Of a stretch of 64,000 nucleotides of DNA, positions 41,428-58,483 are shown piece after piece. Position 1 is the first letter of the stretch. Each line of letters opens with the position of its first letter. The translations under genes were made by a program, and so were the position numbers. Source of the DNA: Candidatus Spongiisociaceae bacterium (GTDB lineage: Bacteria; Actinomycetota; Acidimicrobiia; Spongiisociales; Spongiisociaceae); contig OZ253564.1 of NCBI GenBank assembly GCA_965262915.1, positions 1,440,001-1,504,000 of the forward strand. Direction: 5' to 3'. The notes below the pieces were generated by a model, which saw only the letters and a program-made list of their open reading frames with translations, had not been told where the DNA came from and did not search any database.

Positions 41428-43398
41428 CTATGGGACCAGAAGTTGCCCGAACCGGACTATTTCCTCGTTGAATTCGTCGAAATCGGCGGTGAGCGTAAGA
41501 GTCATACCGACAACTCGGGGGCCGTCATCAGTGTGTCCCTCGATGGCCTCATCGAGGGATGGAATAAAGCTGTGCCCGAACTCCCAGATCTCGTCGAGTA
41601 TGTGGGCGTTCGTGGTTGACAGCAGCTCAACGACACGTTCTGCGTCAGGGTCGACGCGAACAGCGCGGCAGCGCAATGTCCAGCGGGCGCTGTCCTCCCA
41701 GACCTGGGCGAGGCGGCGCGCAGCAGCGGCGATCTCGATCGGGTCTCCTGACACCTGTGGGAGGTAGTCGTTGACGATGGCCGTTGCTGTGCTCGTGTAC
41801 CCACTGAATTCGTGCATCCTGTCCTGTGCCCACGGGGCGAAATCGTTTAGGGCGTGTTCACCTAAAGTTACACTGATGTGATATCATTACGATATGACAA
41901 TAACACAAGAACAATACCAACTCATAGTAGACGTGTTCCCGAAACCCCGCGGTACCGTCAAGGTATCCAACCTCCAAGCCCTCAACGGCATCCTGTACGT
42001 ACTGGAGCACGGCTGCAAGTGGCGGGCGCTTCCCGAACGGTTCGGGAACTGGCACACCGTTTACATGCGGATGAGCCGCTGGGCGGCCAGCGGCGTCTTG
42101 GACCGGGTGTTCCAGCGTCTACAGCAGGAACAGCTCATCGACCTCGAAGTTCTGGGCCTGGACAGCACGTCGGTCAAGGTTCATCCCGACGGCTGTGGTG
42201 CTCTCCGAAAGCGGGGTCCCCAGGCCATCGGTCGCTCCCGGGGAGGGTTGAACACCAAGATCCACATGGTCGCGGCCAGCGCTTGTAGCGCCGTCTTATT
42301 CGCTCTTTCCCCAGGTCAGGACCATGATGCTCCCCATGGGCGGGAGCTCCTCAAAAAGATGGGCCCACGAAAAAAGGAGCAGGAAGGGGAGCAGCTAGAG
42401 CTGTTCCTGGTAGCGGACCGCGCCTATGAAGGGGACGAAACACGGCAACTGGCCGTCGCTCTGGGCTACACGCCGGTCATCCCACCCCGAAGCAACCGCC
42501 GCCACCCGTGGGACTACAACCGTCCGATATACAAGCGACGGAACGAGGTCGAACGGCTCTTCCGACGGCTCAAAGGCTACCGGCGTGTCTTCACCCGCTA
42601 CGACAAACTCGACGTGATGTTCCTAGCATTCATCACCCTCGCGCTCATACACGACACGCTCAGAAACGTAACACGCCCTAGGTTGATGTGGGTCACTTCG
42701 GCTTGAGCGAGCCGATACTCGATCTCGCGGCGTAGCGGTGCTCGACGATCCAGTTCTGCTTCGAGGACTGTTCCAAAGAGCCTGATTTCCCAGAGCGTGT
42801 CGCGTCGAAGCGCCACCATCAGCGCGTCGCCGGCGAGCTCCTCTAGGAGACGGTCGTGGCCATGTGCCTTCTGATGGAGAGCGAGGGCGTCTTGCACGAG
42901 GTATGCGAACTGCTGGCGCAAGGTGTCAACGATGTCCTCGGTGGCAGTAAACGAGAATGTCCAGACGTCGCCACTCTCGCGGAACGAATCTATGAACTCG
43001 AAAACGCGCGGCGTGTCGACGACGCCGGAGTAGTCGGCGTCGGGGTTGCTCCGCCACACACTCAACTGTGCAAGAACGTCGCTGTCGACGAAGACGTACG
43101 TGGGTACGCCCCGTGCTCGGGCTTCAAGAAATTCGAGGTTGGTGACGGACTTGTCGGTATCGGGGTCGACCGAGCCGTACCGCGCGCCGACAACCATCAC
43201 GAAGATATCGGCGTTCTCTCGGACGTTCCTCACGCTGTTGGTGACCGTCGTCTGGTTCGCGTCGATCGGGAACGAACCGTGCTCGGCCATCACGGCACGC
43301 CAACCGAGTCCCCCTATGAATTGGCGAAGCTGCGAGCGGAGATGGTTGAGGTCGTACATGGTCGAACTCACGAAGACATTTGGTGGTCGGTTCTTCAC
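41428..43398 (-). pseudogene. DUF4062-domain protein interrupted by IS5
   Basis: VFVSSTMYDL...ADIFVMVVGARYGS...SVTNLEFLEA; removing the IS and one TA restores the frame ...THINL-NDFAPWAQDRMHEF... Confidence 0.88.
41850..42678 (+). mobile_element. IS5-family element (IS427-like) with TA duplication; transposase 41894-42706
   Basis: IRs gggcgtgtt / aacacgccc; GCKWRALP, LDSTSVKVH, ADRAY, YKRRNEVERLF. Confidence 0.93.
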
Positions 43399-43851
43399 TG
43401 GCCACTCCGTTCAGTCGCAGGAGACGCCCTCGGGCACTTTAGGGCCGAATCCCGGATCACCACCCCGTCGGCGAGGACCCCGACGGGGAGCTGTGGCACT
43501 GACTTGTCCTGAGACGCTCGGCCGGCCTAACTCCCCCCTGAGCCCCGCCCAGCGGAGGGGTCCTCCGCTGGAGGGACTCAGGAGGTGGTAGGGAGGGGCG
43601 GCCTCTCCTGCCTCGCACCGAAAGGTGGCGCCGGGGGCCCCCACACCCAACGGATCCAGCGGCACCGGGGTCAGGAATCGATGCTGACCCCTCCGAACAT
43701 GCGGGAGCTTGTCTACTAGCCCGGTCTCCGCTGACCATCGTCGACCGGTATTAACCGTCGCATATTCGACCGTGGCTGGGGTGGTTTATGCACGACCTGG
43801 ACGGCCCTACCCCGAAACCGCCATCTACCTGGGGAAACACCGACGGGCGTG

Positions 43852-43879
43852 GCTTTACATAATATCTATTATCGGACAC
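43852..43879 (-). other. dif-like Xer recombination site #3
   Basis: Minus strand gtgtccgataa-tagata-ttatgtaaagc; inverted relative to site #2. Confidence 0.8.
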
Positions 43880-43936
43880 CGCTGCCCCTGACAATCCGGC
43901 CCCCGCTGCGGTTCGTCGGTGTGGTCCTCTCGGGGG

Positions 43937-44899
43937 TTAGCCCCGCTCCCAGCCCCGCTCCGTGTAGTACCAATCGCACGCAGGGCAGCGGCACTTATCG
44001 GCATGGATGAGATCAAGGCAGGCGTCGCATTCGCAGCCGTCGTTGCCCGACTGGTCATGGCCTGGGATCCCGCCGAGGGGGAACAGCCCCTCACGCTGTT
44101 TGCGCGGGACATGCCGGTTGAGTTGACACTGGTCGCATGCGCACACCGGCGGCGCGGGCAGCGTGTTATCGGGACTGTCGCCGTCCTCGGGTTTGGTTGG
44201 CACATAGCGGACTGAGATGGTCTTGATTTGGCTGGCCGATACGATCACTCGGTCTACATCCCAATCCTCTGCAGCCGTTATGTTGTCGCCGGGAGGGCGG
44301 ATCTTGACGGGGCGCCCAATTTGGATACTACGAGCGTCGTTCTCCTCGAGGTCGGTGCTGAAGGCGAAGAGCGGGCCGTAGAGGTAGGTCCCGTCCTTTA
44401 GGTCGAGACCGACATACACCCGATGGTGAGGGCGTTTAGTGAAAGCGAACCCCCATCCTGACAATTGTTCGATAGGCCCTTGCAGTTGCCTGGTTGCTAT
44501 GAACGTTGCGATTGTGGGACCAGGCCAGAATCTGATTTTGGAAGCGCGCTTACTGCTCCACGCTGGGGGGACAGCGATTACTGCGGCAAGGCCGGTTGCA
44601 GCGAGAAGCAGGGCGGCAGACCAGAGTGTGACCTCGGCGTAGTTGCTCTGGAAGTAGCCACTCGGATCACGGACAATCGCCCCGGCATCCGGTGTGATAG
44701 TTGGCAGTAGGTATCGGAGAATGGCGAATAGGCCGAGTATGACCCCGTTGACTGCGAGGCTGACCGACACGATCGTCACGGTCTCGCGGAGAAGGCTGTA
44801 TCTCCTCTCGGGGAGCCGCGTCTCCGTTCTGACGAGATAGACGAACCCAGGTGTCAGGAATGTGACGAAGATGGCAAGGCCAACGAGAGTCGTAGGCAT
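43937..44899 (-). CDS. Multi-TM hypothetical protein (DUF6338-like)
   Basis: MPTTLVGLAIFVTFLTPGF, three TM helices, LKDGTYLYG soluble domain. Confidence 0.7.
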   Translation of the reverse strand: MPTTLVGLAIFVTFLTPGFVYLVRTETRLPERRYSLLRETVTIVSVSLAVNGVILGLFAILRYLLPTITPDAGAIVRDPSGYFQSNYAEVTLWSAALLLAATGLAAVIAVPPAWSSKRASKIRFWPGPTIATFIATRQLQGPIEQLSGWGFAFTKRPHHRVYVGLDLKDGTYLYGPLFAFSTDLEENDARSIQIGRPVKIRPPGDNITAAEDWDVDRVIVSASQIKTISVRYVPTKPEDGDSPDNTLPAPPVCACDQCQLNRHVPRKQREGLFPLGGIPGHDQSGNDGCECDACLDLIHADKCRCPACDWYYTERGWERG

Positions 44900-45361
44900 T
44901 ACGAGCGGCTATCCGAAGGTGGCAGCGAGGACGAAGTTAGCCTTTGGGCGGCGGCTTCGGGTCTGCATTACTGCTTGACGAGGCGGCCGGGGCGTTCGGG
45001 GGCTGCTGTTGACCTCGGTCGGTTACCCCTCGGACCCGAACCTGTCTTGTCTGCGATCCGCCATCTTCACGCTGCACGCGCCATCGGCCGTGTTCCTTCT
45101 TGGCTGGCATAGCCCTAAAGATTACCAGTTCCCCCGGGTACGCTCGACACGGGCACCGAGGCCGGATACCTCCGGTCCGCTCCTCCGCTGCCCACGACGG
45201 TCAACAGCCAAGTAACCGGTTCCCCCCAGCACGCCGTGGGCGGCGAAACCCTCGGGGTTTCGGGAGGGAACACCCCCAAACCCGCCTGTCCCCGACCGAC
45301 GCGAATCAGGTGGAAAGTGGTGCACGCCGCGGTAGGCGACGTGATCGCGGAGTGGGTTCGT

Positions 45362-45775
45362 ATGGTCCGCTCCGGCCAGACGAAGCCCAGACTCGTCGAA
45401 TTCAGCACTCGCGCTGTGGCCTCAACGGATCTGCTTGAGCAGGTCCGGGCTCTGAATGCGGACAACAGAGTTGTTCCGGCCGCCCCGATCGTATTGGCTG
45501 GAGTTGCTCTTGAGATCGCACTTCGGTCCGCGGTCGAGGAACTCGATCTCACCGTCGAGGGACGGGGAAGCATCGATGCTTATGCCAGGGCGCTCCGCCA
45601 GGTCGATGTGCTGAACAGGCAGGACATGAAAGATGTCACGCAGATGGCGGGCCTTCGCAACGACGCCGCGCATGGAGTCCACGAGACACTCAGCCGTAAG
45701 GGAGCGAGCTTGATGGAACAGCAAGCGAACCTCTTCCTCGCCCGGCTAGATCAGGCCGTCCAGCAGTCGAACTGA
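45362..45775 (+). CDS. HEPN/DUF4145-like protein (5' end uncertain)
   Basis: IVLAGVALEIALR...LRNDAAHG (RxxxxH). Confidence 0.7.
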   Translation: MVRSGQTKPRLVEFSTRAVASTDLLEQVRALNADNRVVPAAPIVLAGVALEIALRSAVEELDLTVEGRGSIDAYARALRQVDVLNRQDMKDVTQMAGLRNDAAHGVHETLSRKGASLMEQQANLFLARLDQAVQQSN

Positions 45776-45950
45776 AACCCAAGCCGTCGCCCAACCAGAA
45801 CCTCAAACGAGGCTGAGTTCGGGTGCTGTTCGCTGCTGGGGGCAACGGAGGACCCCTCCGCTGGAGGCGCTCAGGCGCTGTGGCTGTGGGTGTTGGGCCA
45901 GCCCAGGTCGGAGGGCGTTGTCACATGGATACTCGGCGGCGGTGGCACCG

Positions 45951-47048
45951 CTAAGGCCGTATTGGACGCTCCTCTCCCTTGATCGTGAGTTTGATCTTGT
46001 CTGCAAACTGCCTCTTGTCCCCGGTCACACGAACCGCTCTCTTGGCTTGGACTCTTAAGCTTCCCGTTACCCCGACGTACTCGGCTTCGTCCAGGATCAC
46101 ACGGGCGGCCTTTGCCAAAGACCGTGCGGGTTGGGGGCCAGTCATTCCCCTGAACGCATCGGTTCCTACAGCAGCCTCGAAGTACCGCCACTTCCCAAAG
46201 GTACCGCGGTTCTCTGTCAGCACATCCCGTATGGTTGCGAAGTCTGCTTCGATCCGATCTCGGCTCTCCCGTGGGAGGTGGTCAAATAGATTCAGCAGGT
46301 CGTGGATCTTTCTCGCTTCATCGGTACAAGTTAGTGAGATGGCCTTCAGCGCGAGCTCGCACGCGAAGGCGGCGATCATCCCGTTCCCTAGCAGCAAGCC
46401 AGCTGTCGCAAGAAGTTCTTGCTCTCGGTGCCGCGGGTTCTGGCTCAGGGCATGCGCATCGATCTGGAACGAGACCGACCCATCGGCGTTGACTCGGTAA
46501 TCGCGAAAGTCCGCGATCGAGACCCTCTCATGGTCGGTGTTACGGGATACTCCGTCGAGGAGAGCTCGCGCCTGGAGGAAGAACAAACCTGGTGAACCTG
46601 CGGGGAAGTCACGGCGGGTGAGCTTTCCCCTAGGGCTTTTGCTGCGGGCAACCCGGTCCAGCAGCTCCTGCTTCGACAACCTGTGGAGCTTAGGAAAAAC
46701 CTTTTGAGCGAACGGACCGTCACCGTACTTGGGTTGATGTCCCAACATCATGTTCAACGCGTTGCTGAAGGACTCCTCGGATATCCTCTTTGCCTCTGCC
46801 GCTGCAGCGCTGCCTTCCAGTATCTCGCCACAGACGATGCACTTTATGCCGGTGACAGCACGCTCCGGGTCGGTTCTTCCCCTGAGGACTCCCCAGCACC
46901 GCTTGCAGCGTCCCGTGGCATCGAACTCTGAGAAGGGGGGCTGGCCACCGATGACACCGAGCGAGACGGTTGTGGCGTCCATGTCCCAGTCCCACTCAAT
47001 GGGAATCGTCTGTTTGGTTCTCTCATTCGGTTCGTTCATGTCGATCAA
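45951..47048 (-). CDS. Zn-ribbon + HEPN-like protein
   Basis: CKRC...CIVC; FACELALKA...HDLLNLF...KWRY. Confidence 0.65.
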   Translation of the reverse strand: MIDMNEPNERTKQTIPIEWDWDMDATTVSLGVIGGQPPFSEFDATGRCKRCWGVLRGRTDPERAVTGIKCIVCGEILEGSAAAAEAKRISEESFSNALNMMLGHQPKYGDGPFAQKVFPKLHRLSKQELLDRVARSKSPRGKLTRRDFPAGSPGLFFLQARALLDGVSRNTDHERVSIADFRDYRVNADGSVSFQIDAHALSQNPRHREQELLATAGLLLGNGMIAAFACELALKAISLTCTDEARKIHDLLNLFDHLPRESRDRIEADFATIRDVLTENRGTFGKWRYFEAAVGTDAFRGMTGPQPARSLAKAARVILDEAEYVGVTGSLRVQAKRAVRVTGDKRQFADKIKLTIKGEERPIRP

Positions 47049-47159
47049 CGCTCTGCTCCTGCTACGTAGGATGCGGGCACATCGAAGTCCATTCCGGGCT
47101 GTCTGACCGCTCCGGACCGGGTGGCACAGCAGGCGGATGTTTCACGGCGCCGACCATTT

Positions 47160-48119
47160 CTAACCAGTCAGTTCGTGACGTGTGATCACGGTCCGGCCCG
47201 ATGGTGTTTCCTTGCTTGCGGGTTGTCGGTCCGTTCCGATATCGATCGTGACCAAGAAGAATGTCTTGCCGTCGTGCATGATTCTGGGCGGGAATTCGCC
47301 GTCGGGTGAGTCTTCGGACGGCCAGACCAACTGATTGTTCGAACAGTTGAACACGACGAGATAGCCGATGTTCTGCTGGTAATCGTTGGCGTAACGCAGA
47401 ACTTGGTGGAACCCTTGACGCAGGCGGCTCTTGTCCCTGCCCCGAGCCGGGTCGAAGACCTTGGCTTCGAGGACCAGCGGATCGTCCGCGTCGTCGAGGC
47501 TGACGACATCCGCCCGCCCCGACGGCGAATCGGGCTGCGAGAAGGGGAAATCCACACCCCCGTCGAACAGCGCCTCCCGCAGCCGACGGTCGAGGTTCTT
47601 CTCACCTGACCCCGTGTCACGAAGATAGGCCTGATGTAGTTCTTGTTGGCTGAACCACTCGGCTTTCCGCTTGAACCGTTGCAGCAGGTACACGACGTTG
47701 CCTGTGTCGTCGATCCGGTCATCGAGATAGTTGACAACCGGATCGAGCACGGCCTCGTTCAGATCATTGAGCATTTCGTTGAACCTCGACTCGTGGCTGA
47801 ATGCACTTCCCCACGAGATGGCTGCTCGCTGTTCAGGGTCGTACGCACACTCCTTCAGGATCCCAAGGCAGAGTTTCGCCCTGGCCGTCTCCGAAGGCGG
47901 AAACGCGATAGAACGCGACTTGGCAGCAGCGTCCTTCCATTCCCCAAAATCCGCTTCGTCGCCGGCGTCCAGTGTGTGTAACAGGGCACGGAGATACGGG
48001 TTGTCATCGAGGAACTGCAGGAACAACTGCAGTTCTGTCTCATAGTGCCGATAGTCCACCATGTGTACACGGTTCCGGCGCTGCTGCAAGCGGACACGCA
48101 AGTCGAGTAGGTACCGCAT
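47160..48119 (-). CDS. Hypothetical protein with C-terminal PD-(D/E)xK nuclease-like domain
   Basis: GRADVV...LVLEAK...GFHQVLRYA...GYLVVFN. Confidence 0.72.
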   Translation of the reverse strand: MRYLLDLRVRLQQRRNRVHMVDYRHYETELQLFLQFLDDNPYLRALLHTLDAGDEADFGEWKDAAAKSRSIAFPPSETARAKLCLGILKECAYDPEQRAAISWGSAFSHESRFNEMLNDLNEAVLDPVVNYLDDRIDDTGNVVYLLQRFKRKAEWFSQQELHQAYLRDTGSGEKNLDRRLREALFDGGVDFPFSQPDSPSGRADVVSLDDADDPLVLEAKVFDPARGRDKSRLRQGFHQVLRYANDYQQNIGYLVVFNCSNNQLVWPSEDSPDGEFPPRIMHDGKTFFLVTIDIGTDRQPASKETPSGRTVITRHELTG

Positions 48120-48129
48120 TCGTAAACTC

Positions 48130-48372
48130 CTAGATCGTGATGGTGATCGTCGTGTCCAGGTTCTTGATCTCGCGCTCGAGGTCCGTGAGAGCGTTGTGGA
48201 CACTCCGACGCGTTCTGTGACCGCTAGCCCGGTCGTCGGAGAACCGTATACGTCCTTTGCAGCATGGACAGAACACCGCATCCTCCAACTGTGCCAGCCG
48301 GAACCGAACATCTACCTCGTAGCCGCACCGCGGGCACGGGACTCTCAGAAAGGCGCGATCGAAGGGGTACAC
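48130..48372 (-). CDS. Small Zn-ribbon protein upstream of the nuclease-like gene
   Basis: CPRC...CPCC; 10 bp gap containing an RBS (ggag). Confidence 0.7.
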   Translation of the reverse strand: MYPFDRAFLRVPCPRCGYEVDVRFRLAQLEDAVFCPCCKGRIRFSDDRASGHRTRRSVHNALTDLEREIKNLDTTITITI

Positions 48373-49104
48373 CGTCTGGTCACCTCCGAATAACGGTCCT
48401 CGACACACAACCGGGACCGGCCGGCCGTGTCAGGCGGCCAGATCAAGCACGAAAGCCCCGTATGGGTTCGGGGTCAGAAAGCGAAGCGAGCAATGACGAG
48501 GAGAGCCACCAGGCACACCGCGATTCCGACTCCCGCGAACACGACATCGACGACGTCGCCTAATAGGTCTCTGATTAGTTTCATGGTCGTAATTCTACAA
48601 CCCGACCCTGACAAGGGTCGGTCCCGCCGTCTCACCCGAAATCACAGCAACCGACCGCGGGTGAGGAACGCATGTGATTTCTGCACCGTTCCGGATGTTC
48701 AGGTCAGGGCCCCCTGTCTGGGTTTTGTTGTGCGAACTGGTGTCCGCAGGGGTGTGCAGATCGTGGGCGGGTTCTCCCGGCCCCCAAATCGGCCTCTAGG
48801 CCTTCGGGTTGTGTTGGTTAACGTGCTGACGGGCGGGTCGTGGGTGTTTCCGCCCGAAACCCCTCGAGGGGGAGAGCCGCCACGGCGTGCTGAGAGAATC
48901 GGCTACCTGGCTGTCCGGCCGGCCGGCGGCAGCGGACTTCCCTTCCGCTGGGAGGGACTCAGGAGGCGACGGGGAGTAGGCAGACCCAGGCACCTCTCGG
49001 CACCGAGCGCTGCCGGCCTTCCCCTAGCCGCCGACCGCTACTAGGGAGCCCCCCTCTCTGAGAAACCCGAGATGAGGGTGGCCCTTGCTCTATTCTCCAG
49101 CGAG

Positions 49105-49923
49105 ATGCAACGGCCTCCTCTTTCTGTTCGACACAACAATGAGGCCCTCGAGGCATATCGGGAACTTCATGAGGGGATCCCAGATTGGATGATGCAGGGG
49201 GTGGGCGAATGGGCTGTCCAGGTCCTTAGCCACGCCAGTGATCTGCAGGCAGCTGAACAGTATTTTCGTATAGGACTCGATTGGGCAGCCATACAGAGTT
49301 CGCACGAAGAAGGTGTCGCGCAGCTCCTCGCATTTGAGGACCTCGATGTCTTGGACTATTGCCTGGGCATCTATTACCACCCCGACCACGCGGCGGAACT
49401 CCGAGAGATCCTGGATAGATCAGGGTCGGCGTGGACGGTGGGGACAGACGACGATGAAGGGCTGTGGTGTTTGAAACGGCGCGTGGACGTGACCGTTCTG
49501 GCGGCAGCAAACGAAGAAATGGAGCAACGGAGCAATGCCGCTGAGTACCTTCGGAGGGCTTGGCACCACGTCTACGGTCGGAACCCGAACCCCAGCACTG
49601 CTTACCACGACGCCGTTCGTGCAGTAGAGGCCGCCGCCCGTCCGGTCGTGACCCCCAACGATGACCGGGCCACATTGGGCAAGATGATCCTTGCCCTCGA
49701 GGACAAGCCAGGGAAGTGGGAAACGGTAATCGGCGATGTTGACACCGTGCGGAAGATGATGGCAACCATCTGGAAGTCACAGTCCGACCGGCACGGCACC
49801 GACGACACCACCAGGTCCCTCAACGTGTCACAGCCCGCAGCCGAAGCCGCAGTCCAGATGGCCGTAACGCTGGTGCAGCTGTTCCGTACCGGGGCGATCC
49901 GGAGGGAACACGACAGCCTCTAA
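49105..49923 (+). CDS. Abi-like hypothetical protein
   Basis: LHEGIPDWM N-terminus; AYHDAVRAVEA...ATLG...SDRHG...AAEAAVQMAVTL. Confidence 0.65.
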   Translation: MQRPPLSVRHNNEALEAYRELHEGIPDWMMQGVGEWAVQVLSHASDLQAAEQYFRIGLDWAAIQSSHEEGVAQLLAFEDLDVLDYCLGIYYHPDHAAELREILDRSGSAWTVGTDDDEGLWCLKRRVDVTVLAAANEEMEQRSNAAEYLRRAWHHVYGRNPNPSTAYHDAVRAVEAAARPVVTPNDDRATLGKMILALEDKPGKWETVIGDVDTVRKMMATIWKSQSDRHGTDDTTRSLNVSQPAAEAAVQMAVTLVQLFRTGAIRREHDSL

Positions 49924-50090
49924 CAGTCGTGACCCTCTAGAACGCAACGGGTCGTCTGTTGTCTGGTCCGCCCGAGGCAGAGGTGCTGCAACAACTGGAA
50001 AGGGTCAGGCTGTCGCTTAGCCTTCTTCTATCTCCGGGCCCCTGCGGATGGGTCTGGGTCAGAGGTTGGTGGCTAGCATCCCGCTGGCCT

Positions 50091-50805
50091 ATGAGCGATG
50101 ACCACGAAACGACCGAAGACCAAGCGGCAGGCGGCGACACGGTTTCCTATGAAGGGTACGTGTACGTGGCGACCAATCCTGCTATACCGAACATGGTCAA
50201 GATCGGCAGCACGACGCAACACGATCCCCGAAGCCGTATCACTGCGCTGTTCACGACCAGTGTGGCCCCTGCCGTTCGAACTGGAGTACGCGGCAGCAAT
50301 AGCGGATGATCCCGCCAGGGTTGAACGGGCGCTGCACAAGGCTTTCACACCTCAACGGCTGCATCCAAGGCGTGAGTTCTTCAAGGTCGAGCCGTACCAG
50401 GTGATCGCGATCCTCAGGCTGCTCAACGTTGCTGACGTCACTGAGCAGGCCAAGTCCGATGTTGAGGCCGAGAAATCACAGGAGGACCGGGAAGCCCTTG
50501 CGCGAGCCAGACGACCAGTGCTCAATTTCGCCGACCTAGGGCTGCCAGAAGGATCGATCCTTACGTATCTGAGAGACGAGAGAGTCAAAGCCGAGATAGT
50601 CGACGGGCGGCGTGTGCGACTTATCGAACTGCCCGAAAACAAGTACCCCGCAGTCGTGTTGGACGGCGAACCTTCGTTCCTTTCGCCGCTCTCAAGAGAC
50701 CTTCTCGGGGTTGCACGTTATGTGGGCCCCACCCGGTACTGGCGTGTTGAGGACGGACGGTCACTCCTTGAGATCTACGACGAGAAGCACGGTCCAAGGG
50801 AGTAG
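50091..50805 (+). pseudogene. GIY-YIG/T5orf172 protein with a +1 frameshift near 50265
   Basis: GYVYVATNPAIPNMVKIGST...TTSV, then in another frame PLPFELEYA...VERALH...REFF. Confidence 0.85.
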
Positions 50806-51562
50806 CACACCTCTCTGCCTACCTACGCCGGCTAGACCAGCACCCCGTCAACGCCTCGGCTGCTCAAGCTCTTCGAGGGCCAACGTGGCTATGAAAACAT
50901 CGGGGGAGGAACCCTGTACGCAGCACAGGGACGTGGGTGAAATACTGTCAGTTCGGTCCCGCTACAACGAACGCCCACGGTCGAGGAACATCGTGAGCGT
51001 GCGGCTCCCGGCGGGGCTTCTTCTCTGGAGTCTGTCCACGAGAGCACTCTCGCGGACTCGATTTCTCTCCCTTCCGCTGGGGGCTCGGCCGGCCGCCGAC
51101 AGCGGTTACCGGTCCGGTGGTCTCACTAGCCTTAGCGGTTCCGTTTGGGTGGGTGTCGGTTGGGGGAGTGGAGGCGGCAGTGGTCGGCCGGGTTGTAGAT
51201 GGATAGGCGTGCTGTGCAGCTGTCGGTGGCGCAGCGGCGGCCGGGGGGATATGTGGGTGGTGGTCGGCCTTTGGGGGGTAGGACTCTGGTCATAGGGGGT
51301 TGACGGTACCCGGGAGCGGTTTCCGCTGACGGCCGGCGGCATCGGAGTATCCCTCCGTCGGGGGGCTGAGGGATCAGCCGGGCGGGCTGTTGGGGAGCTT
51401 CCGTCTCAGGTCTGCGCCGGGTGACTCGGGCGTTAGGGAGCGGGGGAACGGAGAGTCTGTAGCCTATCGTTGACTAGCGCTGTGTGGTGTATATTCAAAC
51501 GTGGGTGGGCGGGTTTATGCACGGGGCTGGCCGGCTGTTGCCGAAACCGGCTTTTACACCAA

Positions 51563-51943
51563 CGCGATAATATAACGAACATCGAAACAGCCGCCCGCAA
51601 GCTGAGGCAGGGCGCGCAGGTGCGGGAAGGTCTCATCGTGGAAGAGGTTGAGGAGTTCGACTACGACCGTAGCCTCGGCACCAACGCCGAGGAGTTGGCC
51701 CTGTCTGTCCAGTTCACGGTCGGTGTGGTTGTGAGGCGTGCTCGGGTGCTTCGTACCCGAGCCCGGTTCGATGAGTGGGCGGCCACTATCCGGGTGGATA
51801 CAGATCCTGAGTTGGTGGACCGTGAACAGTTGCTGACCTGGTTGGACATTGGGGGGCGTCGTATCGGGGTGGGGAATTGGCGGCCGGAGAAGTCAGGCCA
51901 GTTCGGACGGTTCGAGGTCAAAAACATACAAACCATCTCATAG
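51563..51943 (+). pseudogene. Stand-alone RAMP/Cas7-like protein, C-terminal part (5' end replaced by the non-coding repeat)
   Basis: IETAARK...RARVLRTRARFDEW...GGRRIGVGNWRPEKSGQFGRFEV with a terminal Gly-rich loop; the upstream part of the ORF is repeat DNA. Confidence 0.65.
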
Positions 51944-51954
51944 CGAAGACAGAC

Positions 51955-52073
51955 AGCGTGGCGTGGCTTCGCCTGGCAGGGCTGGGCTCGGCGCCGCACC
52001 GCAGAGCGTGGCTCCGCACCGCACCGAAACCGGACAGGGCCGGGGACAGTGACACACCCTGGGAAACCCGGGT
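51955..52073 (+). ncRNA. Putative small RNA: 14 in-phase NGC-NN pentamers + GAAA-loop hairpin
   Basis: agcgt ggcgt ggctt cgcct ggcag ggctg ggctc ggcgc cgcac cgcag agcgt ggctc cgcac cgcac; hairpin accctgg-gaaa-cccgggt at 52056-52073. Transcription is not shown. Confidence 0.55.
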
Positions 52074-52113
52074 TGGCCACACCCCCCGCCCCGTCCGGTC
52101 AACAGCCCTGAAG

Positions 52114-54893
<2,780 letters not shown>

Positions 54894-55883: not shown

Positions 55884-56101
55884 GAACCCTCGGAGGCCGG
55901 CACCCGGCCTGAAGGTTGATGCGAGGCTTCGTCCGGCACGTCCCGACTTCGTTATGCGGGCAAGCCTCGAGAGACTCAAGATCCCGGCTTTGCGGGCAAC
56001 GTTCGACTGGCCTTGCCAAACAGTGGCTGCACTCGAAGCTCGTGGTGGGTCACAGAAGATCGAAGAGGAGCAACGAACTGACGGTTACCCTTCCAGCCGG
56101 T

Positions 56102-58483
56102 ATGACAGAACCCTCTTCCACCCTTGGCTGGCACGGGTACCGGGTGGTTGGTGTCCTGTTCATGGCGGTACCAACCGCGGCCGGCCTTGCATGGTGGTTT
56201 GCCGAGACCCATAGCGGACCTCTACTTCGGGACGCTCTGACCGCTGCCCTAGTGCCTGTCGGATTCATCATCGCGTTCGGATTCGGATATGCGGGAAACA
56301 CGTTCTCCAGACGTCTTGCCCTGTATGGGTACGAAAGGGAGACACACCCGGCGATTCTCGTTCTTCTGTTCTTTGGCCTCGCTGTTGGAACAGTGGCTCT
56401 GATTCTTGTCTATCTGGCGCTCGGAGACAGAGACAACTTGTGCTTGGGTCCCTGTCGTCTCGCCGTCCCGCTTCCATGGATAAACGCGTACTGGCAGCCG
56501 CTACTGGTGGCGCATTCCACGATCGGCCAGTTAGCTACGGCAGGAGTAGGGATGGTGCTTGCGGGGTCAGTTCAGGTGCTCTTCGGTCTACTTCATCCAC
56601 GTCGGCTCGATGTGTACTCGCACAACCTCCTCCTCGGACGCCGCTTCGCTGCCCGGCTCCTTGACAGCTTGGTCCTCTTGGCGTCGACCTTCTGCATGAT
56701 CGAGTATGGCCCCGAGTTGCTCGTCGGCCGCTTCGGGCTGTCATGGACGGCCGCTCGAGTCACTCTCAGCTGTCTGCTCTTGGCGCTGCCCTTCTTATAC
56801 GAGGTCACTCCCCAGTTCGGCTGGAAGTGGTGGCTCGGGTTGCGGCTGGTAGCCCCTCCCGACGGTAGACCGGTCGCTATAGGGCGGTTAGCTGTACGGG
56901 CGCTCGTCACGTCACTTGTGTTCTCTCTCGGTATCGACGCGGCAGTTGTCCTTTGGACCATCGAAGGTTCGTATTTATTCTGGGTCATGGTCGGGCGGAT
57001 GCTGCTCCTGGTCGCTCTGATCCCAGCGGTGGTGCATCCACACGGCCAGGGATTCCATGACGTACTGCTGGGTACCCAAGTCCGCGGCGATCTCGATGGA
57101 GACACGGAACCGGGCCAGTCTTCCGAGTCCGAAGGGCTACGGCTCCGCTCCGCGGATTTCACTGCCGACGAGGACGATCCGTTCGCGAACGACCTACTGG
57201 ACCGTCAACCCCAGGTCGAGTATCTCTCCGCTGTGATCACGGCAACGGATAGCCCACTTGTGGTGATGGTTGACGCGCCGTGGGGTAGCGGCAAAACCGC
57301 ATTCCTAAGGATGTGCGCTGCCCACCTGCGACACCAAGGCGTTACTGTGGCGGAGTTCAACGCCTGGACCGACCAACATACCCAGCAGCCGCTCCTTGAC
57401 ATGGTCGGTGCGCTCTCGGCCCGCCTTCCAAAAGGGGCTGCCACCCGTATCGGGTCGGCTGCCTCGGGCCTGCTCACCCTGCTCACCACCGACCATCCCA
57501 GCCCAAGGATTGATTCGTGGGATGACCACAACCGGGCCGTGAGATCGTTCACCGAATCGTTAGCGGAAGTAGCGGCCGATCGCGGGCGTCTGGTCGTGAT
57601 CGTGGATGAGCTCGACCGTTGCCGACCTGAATACACACTCGGGATACTGGCGGACATCCACCATCTCTTCTCAGTAGACGGGGTCACGGTTCTGCTCGGC
57701 GTTAACCGTCGCCAACTATGTCACGCTGTGCAAGCCGTGTACGGACTCAGCTTCGATGCAGACTCGTATCTTAGGCGATTCGTCGATATCCCTATTAACT
57801 TGCCCTCCCCGAACCGCACAGAACTTGAAGCTTTCCTCGACCATCTGTACGCCGAATCCCGTCTTCACGGCCGGACTTCGCGTGGACTGGCCAAGTGGCC
57901 AGCTACGAGAGCCGTGCTCCGCCTGGTTATCGAGCTCAAGTCGTGTTCATTACGGGATCTGCAGCAGGCTGCCCATATCTACGCTCTAGCGCTGGTCAAG
58001 CGGGTTCCCGATGATCATCCGTACGATGTGTGGCAACTTTCGGTCGCAGCGATGGTCGTGTTGCGCGTCGCGGACCGGGACGCCTACGACCGCTTTGTAG
58101 TTGGCCAATCCGACAGCTTCGAGGCTCTGACCTCCGCTTACGCTGCTCTCGGGCCGGAACCACATCTGAGGCCTACGGACACGCTGCCCCATGGAACCCG
58201 AAGGGATCACTTCGCTGCCGCCTTGATCAACATCGGGTCGCGCGACGACTGGTGCGATACCATCAGCGGTGCTGAAGATGCGTTCGTAGAGCGGTACCGG
58301 CGCGCCCACGCTGCTCTCCCACAATCTATCGAGGGTTCTCCACGGGATTCGACACAGGCTGCCCGCGATGTCCTCAAGATTCTCTGCCATATAAGGAGTT
58401 GCTATCAGCCACTACCTGTCTGGCGCACCTTGGAAGCAGACAGACTGGCCAACTTGATCGACCTCGCTGTCGATCTCCGATGA
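56102..58483 (+). CDS. Multi-TM / RDD-like region fused to a KAP-family P-loop NTPase
   Basis: GRRFAARLLD...QGFHDVLLGT (RDD-like); DAPWGSGKT, FNAW, VIVDELDRCRP, YLRRFVD (KAP). Confidence 0.85.
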   Translation: MTEPSSTLGWHGYRVVGVLFMAVPTAAGLAWWFAETHSGPLLRDALTAALVPVGFIIAFGFGYAGNTFSRRLALYGYERETHPAILVLLFFGLAVGTVALILVYLALGDRDNLCLGPCRLAVPLPWINAYWQPLLVAHSTIGQLATAGVGMVLAGSVQVLFGLLHPRRLDVYSHNLLLGRRFAARLLDSLVLLASTFCMIEYGPELLVGRFGLSWTAARVTLSCLLLALPFLYEVTPQFGWKWWLGLRLVAPPDGRPVAIGRLAVRALVTSLVFSLGIDAAVVLWTIEGSYLFWVMVGRMLLLVALIPAVVHPHGQGFHDVLLGTQVRGDLDGDTEPGQSSESEGLRLRSADFTADEDDPFANDLLDRQPQVEYLSAVITATDSPLVVMVDAPWGSGKTAFLRMCAAHLRHQGVTVAEFNAWTDQHTQQPLLDMVGALSARLPKGAATRIGSAASGLLTLLTTDHPSPRIDSWDDHNRAVRSFTESLAEVAADRGRLVVIVDELDRCRPEYTLGILADIHHLFSVDGVTVLLGVNRRQLCHAVQAVYGLSFDADSYLRRFVDIPINLPSPNRTELEAFLDHLYAESRLHGRTSRGLAKWPATRAVLRLVIELKSCSLRDLQQAAHIYALALVKRVPDDHPYDVWQLSVAAMVVLRVADRDAYDRFVVGQSDSFEALTSAYAALGPEPHLRPTDTLPHGTRRDHFAAALINIGSRDDWCDTISGAEDAFVERYRRAHAALPQSIEGSPRDSTQAARDVLKILCHIRSCYQPLPVWRTLEADRLANLIDLAVDLR

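Follow-up and report, generated by a model that had tools for sequence, protein, structure and literature searches.

VIPR stands for Viral Interference Programmable Repeat, and its protein Vipr, like the Cas7 backbone, polymerises along a guide with a fixed period. The system was described in April 2026 as a CRISPR-like, RNA-guided and DNA-targeting one in which Vipr is a minimal RAMP (10.64898/2026.04.26.720920). Here we analyse a 64,000 nucleotide (nt) stretch of contig OZ253564.1 of a Candidatus Spongiisociaceae bacterium (the window, by which the whole stretch is meant), in which a truncated gene of this family is followed by a tract of 14 five-nucleotide units. The locus is almost certainly the remnant of a VIPR system. 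VIPR is an already known kind of system, and the window carries a damaged chromosomal member of it.

In the two papers that introduced VIPR (10.64898/2026.04.26.720920 and 10.64898/2026.04.26.720927), the guide RNA (vrRNA) is described as 9-16 YNNGG units followed by a conserved tail, and the target double-stranded DNA as carrying the NN pairs with one skipped base between them. In the complex of SUSP1, each unit is bound by one protomer, which buries G1, G2 and Y3, with N4 and N5 presented; H17 and D177 read G1, R138 and W178 read G2, and R179 is among the residues that read Y3 (10.64898/2026.04.26.720927). Seven VIPR types are distinguished, types III-V carry nuclease or helicase vap genes, HNH appears among the vap domains in the legend to fig. 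S21, and some Viprs are stand-alone (10.64898/2026.04.26.720920). The same paper gives NNNGG, YNNNG and NNNNG as other repeat consensuses and allows 'a related consensus' to GGY. A third paper reports solo vrRNAs that arose through recurrent vipr-vap deletions, on satellites and in 346 vipr-null phages (10.64898/2026.10.15.759431).

An earlier reading of the window, made from its letters without database searches (the sequence-only reading), had proposed a candidate non-CRISPR RNA-guided system and likened it to VIPR-type GGY/NN systems. Such systems exist, and their protomer sequesters the triplet and presents the NN pair in the way envisaged (10.64898/2026.04.26.720927). The assignment to an RNA-guided system of the VIPR type stands; its novelty was overstated, as the system had already been published and the copy at hand is a remnant.

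The truncated gene belongs to the Vipr family

The open reading frame (ORF) at 51470-51943 matched no family in Pfam. It matched phrog_4652, whose function is unknown (E = 3e-18, profile positions 79-191 of 194), and of 374 candidates in a word-indexed protein search, 284 were relatives at E <= 0.001. The 120 listed among these are nearly all 196-204 amino acids long, and their alignments are confined to the final ~77% of the query. Over residues 78-198, the remnant is 97.5% identical to a homologue of 198 amino acids (P0002). It contains no internal stop, and the protein ends in ...GVGNWRPEKSGQFGRFEVKNIQTIS.

A profile built from 40 homologues gave one match in the PDB, 36pp_D, the 'SUSP1 Vipr protein' (E = 3.2e-19, 72.7 bits). 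The alignment joins family residues 4-194 of 198 to residues 5-190 of 202 and takes in the loop rich in glycine (G-loop), GVGDWRP...FGRF. NCBIfam and PADLOC returned nothing meaningful for P0002. An AlphaFold2 model of P0002, computed from the homologue alignment, reached a mean predicted local distance difference test (pLDDT) score of 90.6 and a predicted template modelling score (pTM) of 0.85, and it shows a RAMP fold of the minimal kind, in which RRM core, thumb and glycine-rich loop are all present. When this model was compared with the PDB using Foldseek, 36 matches were obtained at E <= 0.001. Those listed are all CRISPR RAMP proteins, mostly of the Cas7 type (Csm3, type VII Cas7, Cmr and Csf) and one Cas6, with template modelling (TM) scores, normalised to the query, of 0.33-0.55. 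Foldseek returned no Vipr entry from the PDB library up to 8 April 2026, and the Vipr identity of the family therefore derives from the profile match to 36pp_D. The likeness to RAMP/Cas7 proteins that had been read from the sequence is thus borne out by the model of the full-length relative as well as by the profile. The fragment in the window would itself be unable to form the whole RAMP fold, because it is without beta-1, helix 1 and the helical bundle of the structure predicted for the relative. The residues equivalent to the SUSP1 contacts of G2 and Y3 (R138, W178 and R179) are conserved in every locus in which the alignment reaches these positions except L008, which has a stop at position 178.

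The RRM core, thumb and G-loop are shared with the backbone proteins of class 1 CRISPR-Cas systems (Csm3, Cmr4 and Cas7). In contrast to these, the protein in the window has no Pfam match, the period is 5 rather than 6, and the guide is non-contiguous. The locus also lacks the marks of a class 1 CRISPR-Cas system, namely a cas operon, a repeat-spacer array and Cas1. Cas1 (PF01867) was not found in the genome by a search that was positive in 7 of 14 control genomes (no dedicated CRISPR-array finder was run), which agrees with the earlier observation that no cas1 was in sight, and the period-5 tract has no repeat-spacer structure.

A pentamer guide follows the gene fragment

Re-reading the sequence downstream of the stop codon reproduced the sequence-only description exactly, from the 11 nt gap to the number, register and triplet counts of the units (Table 1). 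All 14 units keep the dinucleotide GC at positions 2-3, only 7 of them have G at position 1, and the NN series reads gt, gt, tt, ct, ag, tg, tc, gc, ac, ag, gt, tc, ac, ac. The GAAA-tetraloop hairpin noticed at 52056-52073 is present, with a stem of seven pairs and one mismatch, and RNAfold places it (52058-52072) at the apex of a longer hairpin, 52029-52099. The tail is GC-rich and the region folds at -83 kcal/mol. Rfam gave no match at E <= 1 for 51000-52600.

The genome comprises 5,055,038 bases at 64% G+C. A scan of its whole length found exactly two period-5 GC runs of at least seven units, namely the 14-unit run of the window and a run of 10 units at genome position 541867, beside the sole vipr paralogue. 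The next-longest runs have six units (n = 5), and a rescan that allowed single interruptions again yielded these two tracts as the only long ones. Since the genome has no more than two such tracts and each lies beside a vipr fragment, chance does not explain the tract in the window.

A central NN run (TG, TC, GC, AC or AT, AG) is common to three guides, those of the window, of the second locus in the same genome and of the intact relative L078 (described below). Because of this common run, the three guides probably descend from one guide. Among contigs from other runs, one of run X11 has an extra 5-nt unit (CCGCA) behind 52013, and two of run X8 have other bases at the NN positions 51969 and 51973. 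The number of units, in steps of one, and the NN pairs therefore vary among near-identical strains.

Relatives pair vipr with downstream tracts

A scan of genome contigs yielded 76 loci with 49-80% identity to P0002, almost all of them in metagenome-assembled genomes (MAGs). To be counted, a tract needed six or more GGY units in pentamer register; single interruptions were tolerated. By this criterion, plus-strand GGY/NN tracts occur in the 1500 nt downstream of the gene in 60 of the 76 loci, and in 57 a tract lies no more than 100 nt from the stop. The first of these counts is a lower bound, because L048 and L075 had downstream tracts in a looser scan. Minus-strand tracts of any kind occur in only 2 of the 76 loci. 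Many loci carry arrays of 2-7 guides. The NN positions are hypervariable: over 1707 units, position 4 is A in 722, G in 435, T in 387 and C in 163, and position 5 is T in 551, C in 388, A in 385 and G in 383. The homologues are thus followed by period-5 tracts, and the NN pairs differ from locus to locus, both of which had been named beforehand as points on which the proposal could fail. Together with the RAMP fold, these results support the interpretation of the tract as the guide of a RAMP protein.

The loci span Chloroflexota (Dehalococcoidia, Caldilineaceae), Binatia, Alpha- and Gammaproteobacteria, Acidimicrobiia, Acidobacteriota, Vicinamibacterales and others, and the titles of several carry sponge-associated names. 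This distribution suggests that the Vipr clade was spread by mobile elements within one habitat. The best-preserved relative, L002, lies between an AlpA-family gene and an ORF that looks by eye like a tyrosine integrase, a placement that suggests a small integrative element.

In intact relatives, an HNH-endonuclease gene is followed by vipr, encoding a Cas7-like RAMP of 198 amino acids, and then by one or more vrRNAs. By analogy with SUSP1, Vipr protomers would polymerise along the vrRNA, one per pentamer. The constant triplet would be buried and the two variable bases presented, so that they could pair with double-stranded DNA in dinucleotides one skipped base apart. The guide RNA of the window is presumably made, and its mechanism would be that of SUSP1.

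Compared with the type II VIPR of SUSP1 (Escherichia phage, PDB 36pp), the locus has the same protein family, the same G-loop (GxGDWRP...FGRF) and the same Cas7-type RAMP fold. It also has 5-nt units made of a constant triplet and a hypervariable dinucleotide (14 units here, 9-16 there), followed by a tail that is predicted to fold; there is no cas1 here, and the R138, W178 and R179 contacts recur. In contrast, the window copy is without Vipr residues 1-77 and without an accessory gene, its anchor reads NGC instead of GGY, and the H17 and D177 of SUSP1 correspond to D16 and N177 (S in two homologues). Furthermore, the accessory gene in relatives is an upstream, overlapping HNH endonuclease and not the vap1 DNA-binding protein, the tail is a long hairpin, and the hosts are sponge-associated MAGs of many phyla, with chromosomal and defence-island contexts, and not coliphages.

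Because a related consensus, including YNNNG, is allowed for VIPR (10.64898/2026.04.26.720920), the lack of a GGY anchor does not exclude the locus from membership. When NGC/NN is written from its pyrimidine, it becomes C-NN-N-G and fits YNNNG. The types III-V of that paper resemble the locus in two respects, the HNH gene of its relatives and the position of the window copy among PADLOC candidate defence genes. Judging by two sentences and a figure legend there, the clade may belong to type III.

Variation at the first anchor position

The window guide and the single guide of L078 depart from the canonical GGY anchor. L078 is the closest intact relative for which DNA is available and encodes an intact Vipr of 198 amino acids (86% identity, D16/N177) in a genome of the same taxonomic family; G1 occurs in 4 of 13 counted units of its guide and GC in 13 of 13. 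To pool position 1 across loci, we used downstream tracts of at least nine xGY units, a definition that is independent of position 1. Loci with D177 contributed 119 tracts from 60 loci, in which G1 is found in 1557 of 1707 units (per-tract minimum 0.60, median 0.93). Of the 27 units in the two tracts of N177 loci, 11 have G1, which puts these tracts at the bottom of all 121. Fisher's test gives p = 1e-10 for this difference, treating as independent units that are not.

In a hidden Markov model alignment, SUSP1 H17, D177, R138, W178 and R179 correspond to family positions 16, 177, 138, 178 and 179. Among the 120 listed homologues, N or S at position 177 occurs only in the 14 closest, P0001-P0014, with S in two. 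D16 is found in 10 of these 14, namely those that reach position 16 with an intact front. The other 106 all have D177, and 95 of them have H16. Both positions that contact G1 are thus changed (H16D and D177N/S) in the clade whose guides lost G1. Because the N177 clade represents one evolutionary event with two guides, the correlation is a lead and not a proof.

It is conceivable, though short of probable, that the NGC anchor reflects an altered G1 pocket, with the residue changes causing the relaxed first position. The Vipr of this clade may no longer demand G1, which would leave three variable positions per pentamer. The fuller proposal, that the clade (window, L078 and P0001-P0014) is a natural specificity variant of VIPR with a 2-nt NGC/NN anchor and with an HNH gene overprinted on vipr, is doubtful at present. 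Loci of the N177 clade beyond the window and L078 were not found: a metagenome scan with P0002 gave only two distant loci (35% and 25%), searching viral sequences with the profile added one locus at 55% identity, and 60 related genomes gave only L078. Because so few were found, the claim for the clade stands on two loci.

The low G1 count of the window guide could instead stem from mutational decay after loss of the protein, with no clade-specific NGC code. Vipr is broken in the window, which would leave the guide unconstrained, and some D177 loci have tracts in which the G1 fraction is 0.60-0.70. We consider this explanation unlikely, as all seven changes affect position 1 and the 28 anchor positions 2-3 are untouched, a pattern unlike uniform decay. 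Moreover, L078 has the same low G1 and invariant GC in company with an intact Vipr of the same clade, and the N177 tracts rank below every D177 tract, including those just mentioned.

Damage to the locus and its probable inactivation

The homology to P0002 begins at residue 78, which places the vipr breakpoint at 51577/51578. The earlier impression of a damaged copy is confirmed by this loss of the N-terminus and by the insertion sequence (IS) end at 52113/52114, 40 nt after position 52073. Immediately upstream of the break lies the end of a second repeat element, separated from vipr by a short filler (Table 1). Further copies of this repeat are found at genome positions 516048-515862 (85%), 1262200-1262109 and 1426633-1426724 (86%), and the similarity stops at 51557. 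The repeat (~90-190 nt) ends in a hairpin, GGCTGGCCGG...CCGGC (51466-51557), that abuts the vipr break, and a different, non-coding-looking sequence stands behind its other copies.

Table 1. Coordinates of the vipr remnant, its guide and the surrounding features, numbered from the first nucleotide of the window.
Feature	Position	Strand	Observations
PDC-M14B, weak match	47160-48311		PADLOC
PDC-S32, weak match	49072-49923		PADLOC
PDC-S57 (T5orf172 domain)	50098-50805		PADLOC, E 1.2e-35
Multi-copy repeat element	51066-51364		blastn of 50800-51600: at least 11 other genomic copies, 84-92% identity
End of second repeat element, replacing the front of the locus	51371-51557	+	last ~90 nt present in three other places in the genome
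Junction filler, 20 nt	51558-51577	+	matches neither repeat nor vipr
vipr remnant	51578-51943	+	codons 78-198 and stop; thumb hairpin and G-loop (GVGNWRP...FGRF) kept; without beta-1, helix 1 and helical bundle
Stop-to-guide spacer, 11 nt	51944-51954	+	after TAG stop at 51941-51943
vrRNA guide region	51955-52024	+	14 pentamers NGC/NN: GGC x7, CGC x5, AGC x2
vrRNA 3' tail	52025-52112	+	imperfect hairpin 52029-52099 with GAAA-loop tip; tails of relatives start GGA/CGA, then GC-rich hairpin
IS3-like element	52113-54521	-	HTH_21, rve, rve_3; end at 52113/52114 has 12 other copies
IS30-like element splitting the IS3-like element	52457-53854		HTH_38, rve
PDC-S20 (KAP-family NTPase with RDD domain)	55916-58483		PADLOC, E 5.8e-68

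Contigs from runs X7 and X8 that match from 51578 onward diverge upstream, and one of them reads as intact vipr codons. The break is therefore specific to the lineage of the window, and intact alleles exist in related populations. One contig of run X7 spans 52010-52143 without differences, so that the junction between guide tail and IS is not an artefact of the window assembly alone. The IS at 52113 may cut the tail short. One contig each from X7, X8 and X9 shows a joint that skips 203 nt within the vipr remnant (51634-51838), seen with a side of 36 and a likeness threshold of 85; other organisms or relatives may be its source.

A profile search of the whole genome, which is 96% complete by marker genes, revealed no intact vipr and only two pieces, covering residues 77-197 (window) and 86-197. 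An intact vipr may be carried on an unassembled plasmid or phage of the same cell. An accessory vap gene is absent from the window, that part of the locus having been replaced by the repeat element.

The second piece belongs to another decayed VIPR locus, on the minus strand at 541865-546563 (L001 3867-8560). Its vipr fragment starts at L001 8560, covers residues 86-197, is 72% identical to P0002 and has D177. The guide of this locus is a perfect run of ten GGC/NN units on the minus strand, downstream of the fragment and ~4.3 kb away from it. The gap between them is an IS110-ISL3-IS110 composite, in which two inverted, identical copies of an IS110-family element enclose an ISL3-family element.

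In the window, the repeat element has taken the place of the HNH gene and vipr codons 1-77, and the IS3-like element lies at the end of the tail. The guide is left without a resident protein partner, because the only other vipr of this genome has lost its front as well. In all likelihood the locus is a relic that was inactivated recently, and we consider the statement as a whole, that it is a VIPR remnant and inert in this cell, to be probable.

Several results weigh against this reading in one or other of its parts. The search for the dinucleotide string that the sequence-only reading had called for, in which NN pairs were matched with a 1-nt skip, produced no target. In the own genome, the best match of the 14-unit guide was 21/28, compared with 19-23 for 30 permuted guides; neither the 10-unit guide of the second locus nor the L078 guide had a target there. 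Skips of 0 and 2 gave no better result, and with a skip of 3 the two own-genome guides matched nothing perfectly except the tract itself. Four exact 10-unit patterns had 0 matches each in the viral contigs of IMG/VR, the 14-unit pattern with up to three mismatches had none in any of 61 related genomes, and 513 kb of vipr loci held nothing above permuted controls. Scans of collections such as IMG/VR covered exact matches only, and sponge viromes were not covered with mismatches.

Further such results concern the RNA and the related loci. No run was recorded as RNA among those listed for this stretch. Run X11, with one contig of 229 nt on 51610-51838 and another that covers 52000-52034, was considered as evidence of expression and rejected, since its RNA label is a guess and nothing follows from it. 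The fold of the whole RNA has a z-score of -1.85, and the tail consensus, built from four sequences only, gives weak evidence with 13 pairs, 4 of them with compensatory changes. Among the 76 loci, 16 have no downstream tract by the GGY criterion (some of these are fragments or have upstream arrays), and 8 have plus-strand tracts upstream of the gene. Finally, solo vrRNAs that use Vipr in trans are known elsewhere (10.64898/2026.10.15.759431), which bears on our view that the copy is probably non-functional.

This last point leads to a different account of the locus, in which the guide is kept as a functional solo vrRNA. It would load onto a Vipr of the same clade brought in by a phage or mobile element and would redirect or hijack it, as a decoy or as 'guns for hire'. 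The recurrent vipr-vap deletions on satellites and in vipr-null phages set a precedent, and here too a guide has outlasted its gene: GC is kept in all 14 units, the tail hairpin is kept, both loci of the genome lost the front of vipr and kept the guide, and the starts of six truncated copies, found in different genomes, lie at residues 66-88. Intact alleles that circulate in related populations could supply the protein. The solo loci of SUSP1-family phages and F5 satellites differ, however, in that the whole of vipr-vap1 is cleanly deleted and the guides have predicted targets (vipr, satellites and host REP decoys). At the locus described here, two-thirds of vipr remains, the loss came about through replacement by repeat and IS elements, and no target or decoy was found, be it above permuted controls in the own genome, in the 61 related genomes or in the vipr loci. 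The 97.5% identity of the remnant to intact relatives indicates a recent truncation, and retention of the tract therefore needs no selection. In addition, the surroundings are an IS graveyard, and a scan of 51300-52200 for promoters and terminators found none of either. A promoter-like TTGACT...TATATT, spotted by eye in the upstream repeat element, was dropped because the promoter scan did not confirm it. We therefore regard a working solo guide as distinctly improbable and retain the interpretation of an inert VIPR remnant.

That the tract is a simple microsatellite, a repetitive extragenic palindrome-like (REP-like) repeat or a terminator unrelated to the neighbouring ORF, as a GC-rich, foldable region in a repeat-rich genome might suggest, is already refuted, because blastn of 51944-52160 against the own genome gave only self matches until the IS end at 52113, the only two tracts of this kind lie beside vipr fragments, the scan detected no terminator-like site, and 60 of 76 loci, from many phyla, repeat the order of gene and tract, keeping the anchor while NN varies.

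An HNH gene overlaps vipr in relatives

The ORF upstream of vipr in relatives has six invariant residues, C40, C43, H52, H53, C81 and H85. Its profile matched HNH domains in the PDB, namely those of ZRANB3 (E = 2.3e-5), a Cas5-HNH protein deposited as 'CasD' (7.4e-5) and IscB (1e-3), and Pfam HNH was matched by 10 of 25 members (best E = 7.8e-5). In an AlphaFold2 model of the accessory protein, residues ~20-115 are confident, and the rest has pLDDT below or near 50 except for a short helix. This poorly modelled, mostly disordered tail is encoded in the +1 frame of vipr.

The HNH frame precedes vipr and overlaps it by about 80 codons in 50 of 72 loci, including L002:2660-3259 and L078:1163-1759. 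In these loci, this frame extends without interruption from a point 230-1060 nt upstream of the vipr ATG as far as a stop codon located 183-297 nt into vipr, which in 43 of the 50 lies between +210 and +269. Of 70 loci, 44 keep the +1 frame open throughout the first 76 vipr codons, compared with 15.3 expected from synonymous-codon resampling. Over a control stretch of vipr, it is open in 15 loci, and the +2 frame is open in 9 loci, compared with 9.7 expected. Because the loci are related, the excess of open +1 frames is indicative only. In the main text of 10.64898/2026.04.26.720920, no use of 'overlap' concerns vap/vipr genes.

The six vipr copies, which were truncated independently, are those of the window, the second locus (L001 8560), L072, L075, L077 and L083. 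Their starts lie close to the end of the HNH frame, and the sequences upstream of them are unrelated to one another. The locus finder was seeded with residues 83-92 and 133-142, which biases which truncated copies can be found. This repeated decapitation might hint at cells disarming the nuclease while keeping the guide.

Genomic neighbourhood

Two stretches of the window, 42598-50805 and 55916-58483, resemble a defence island. Besides the PADLOC candidates given in Table 1, proteins with DUF4062 and DUF6338 and an IS4/5 transposase are found there. The candidate defence neighbours fit the published account of nuclease-bearing VIPR types.

Implications for the VIPR family

The window adds a decayed chromosomal example to the known VIPR loci, and it shows that IS traffic in IS-rich genomes wears such loci down, as it does CRISPR loci. 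The presence of a clade at 50-80% identity across sponge-associated bacteria of different phyla points to traffic of mobile elements in that community. The HNH nuclease gene that overlaps vipr bears on the regulation of the nuclease-bearing VIPR types. Furthermore, the change from H16/D177 to D16/N177, coincident with the change from GGY to NGC, constitutes a natural experiment on anchor recognition. If the relaxed first position is real and contributes to targeting or discrimination, the information carried per unit would differ from that of the published code.

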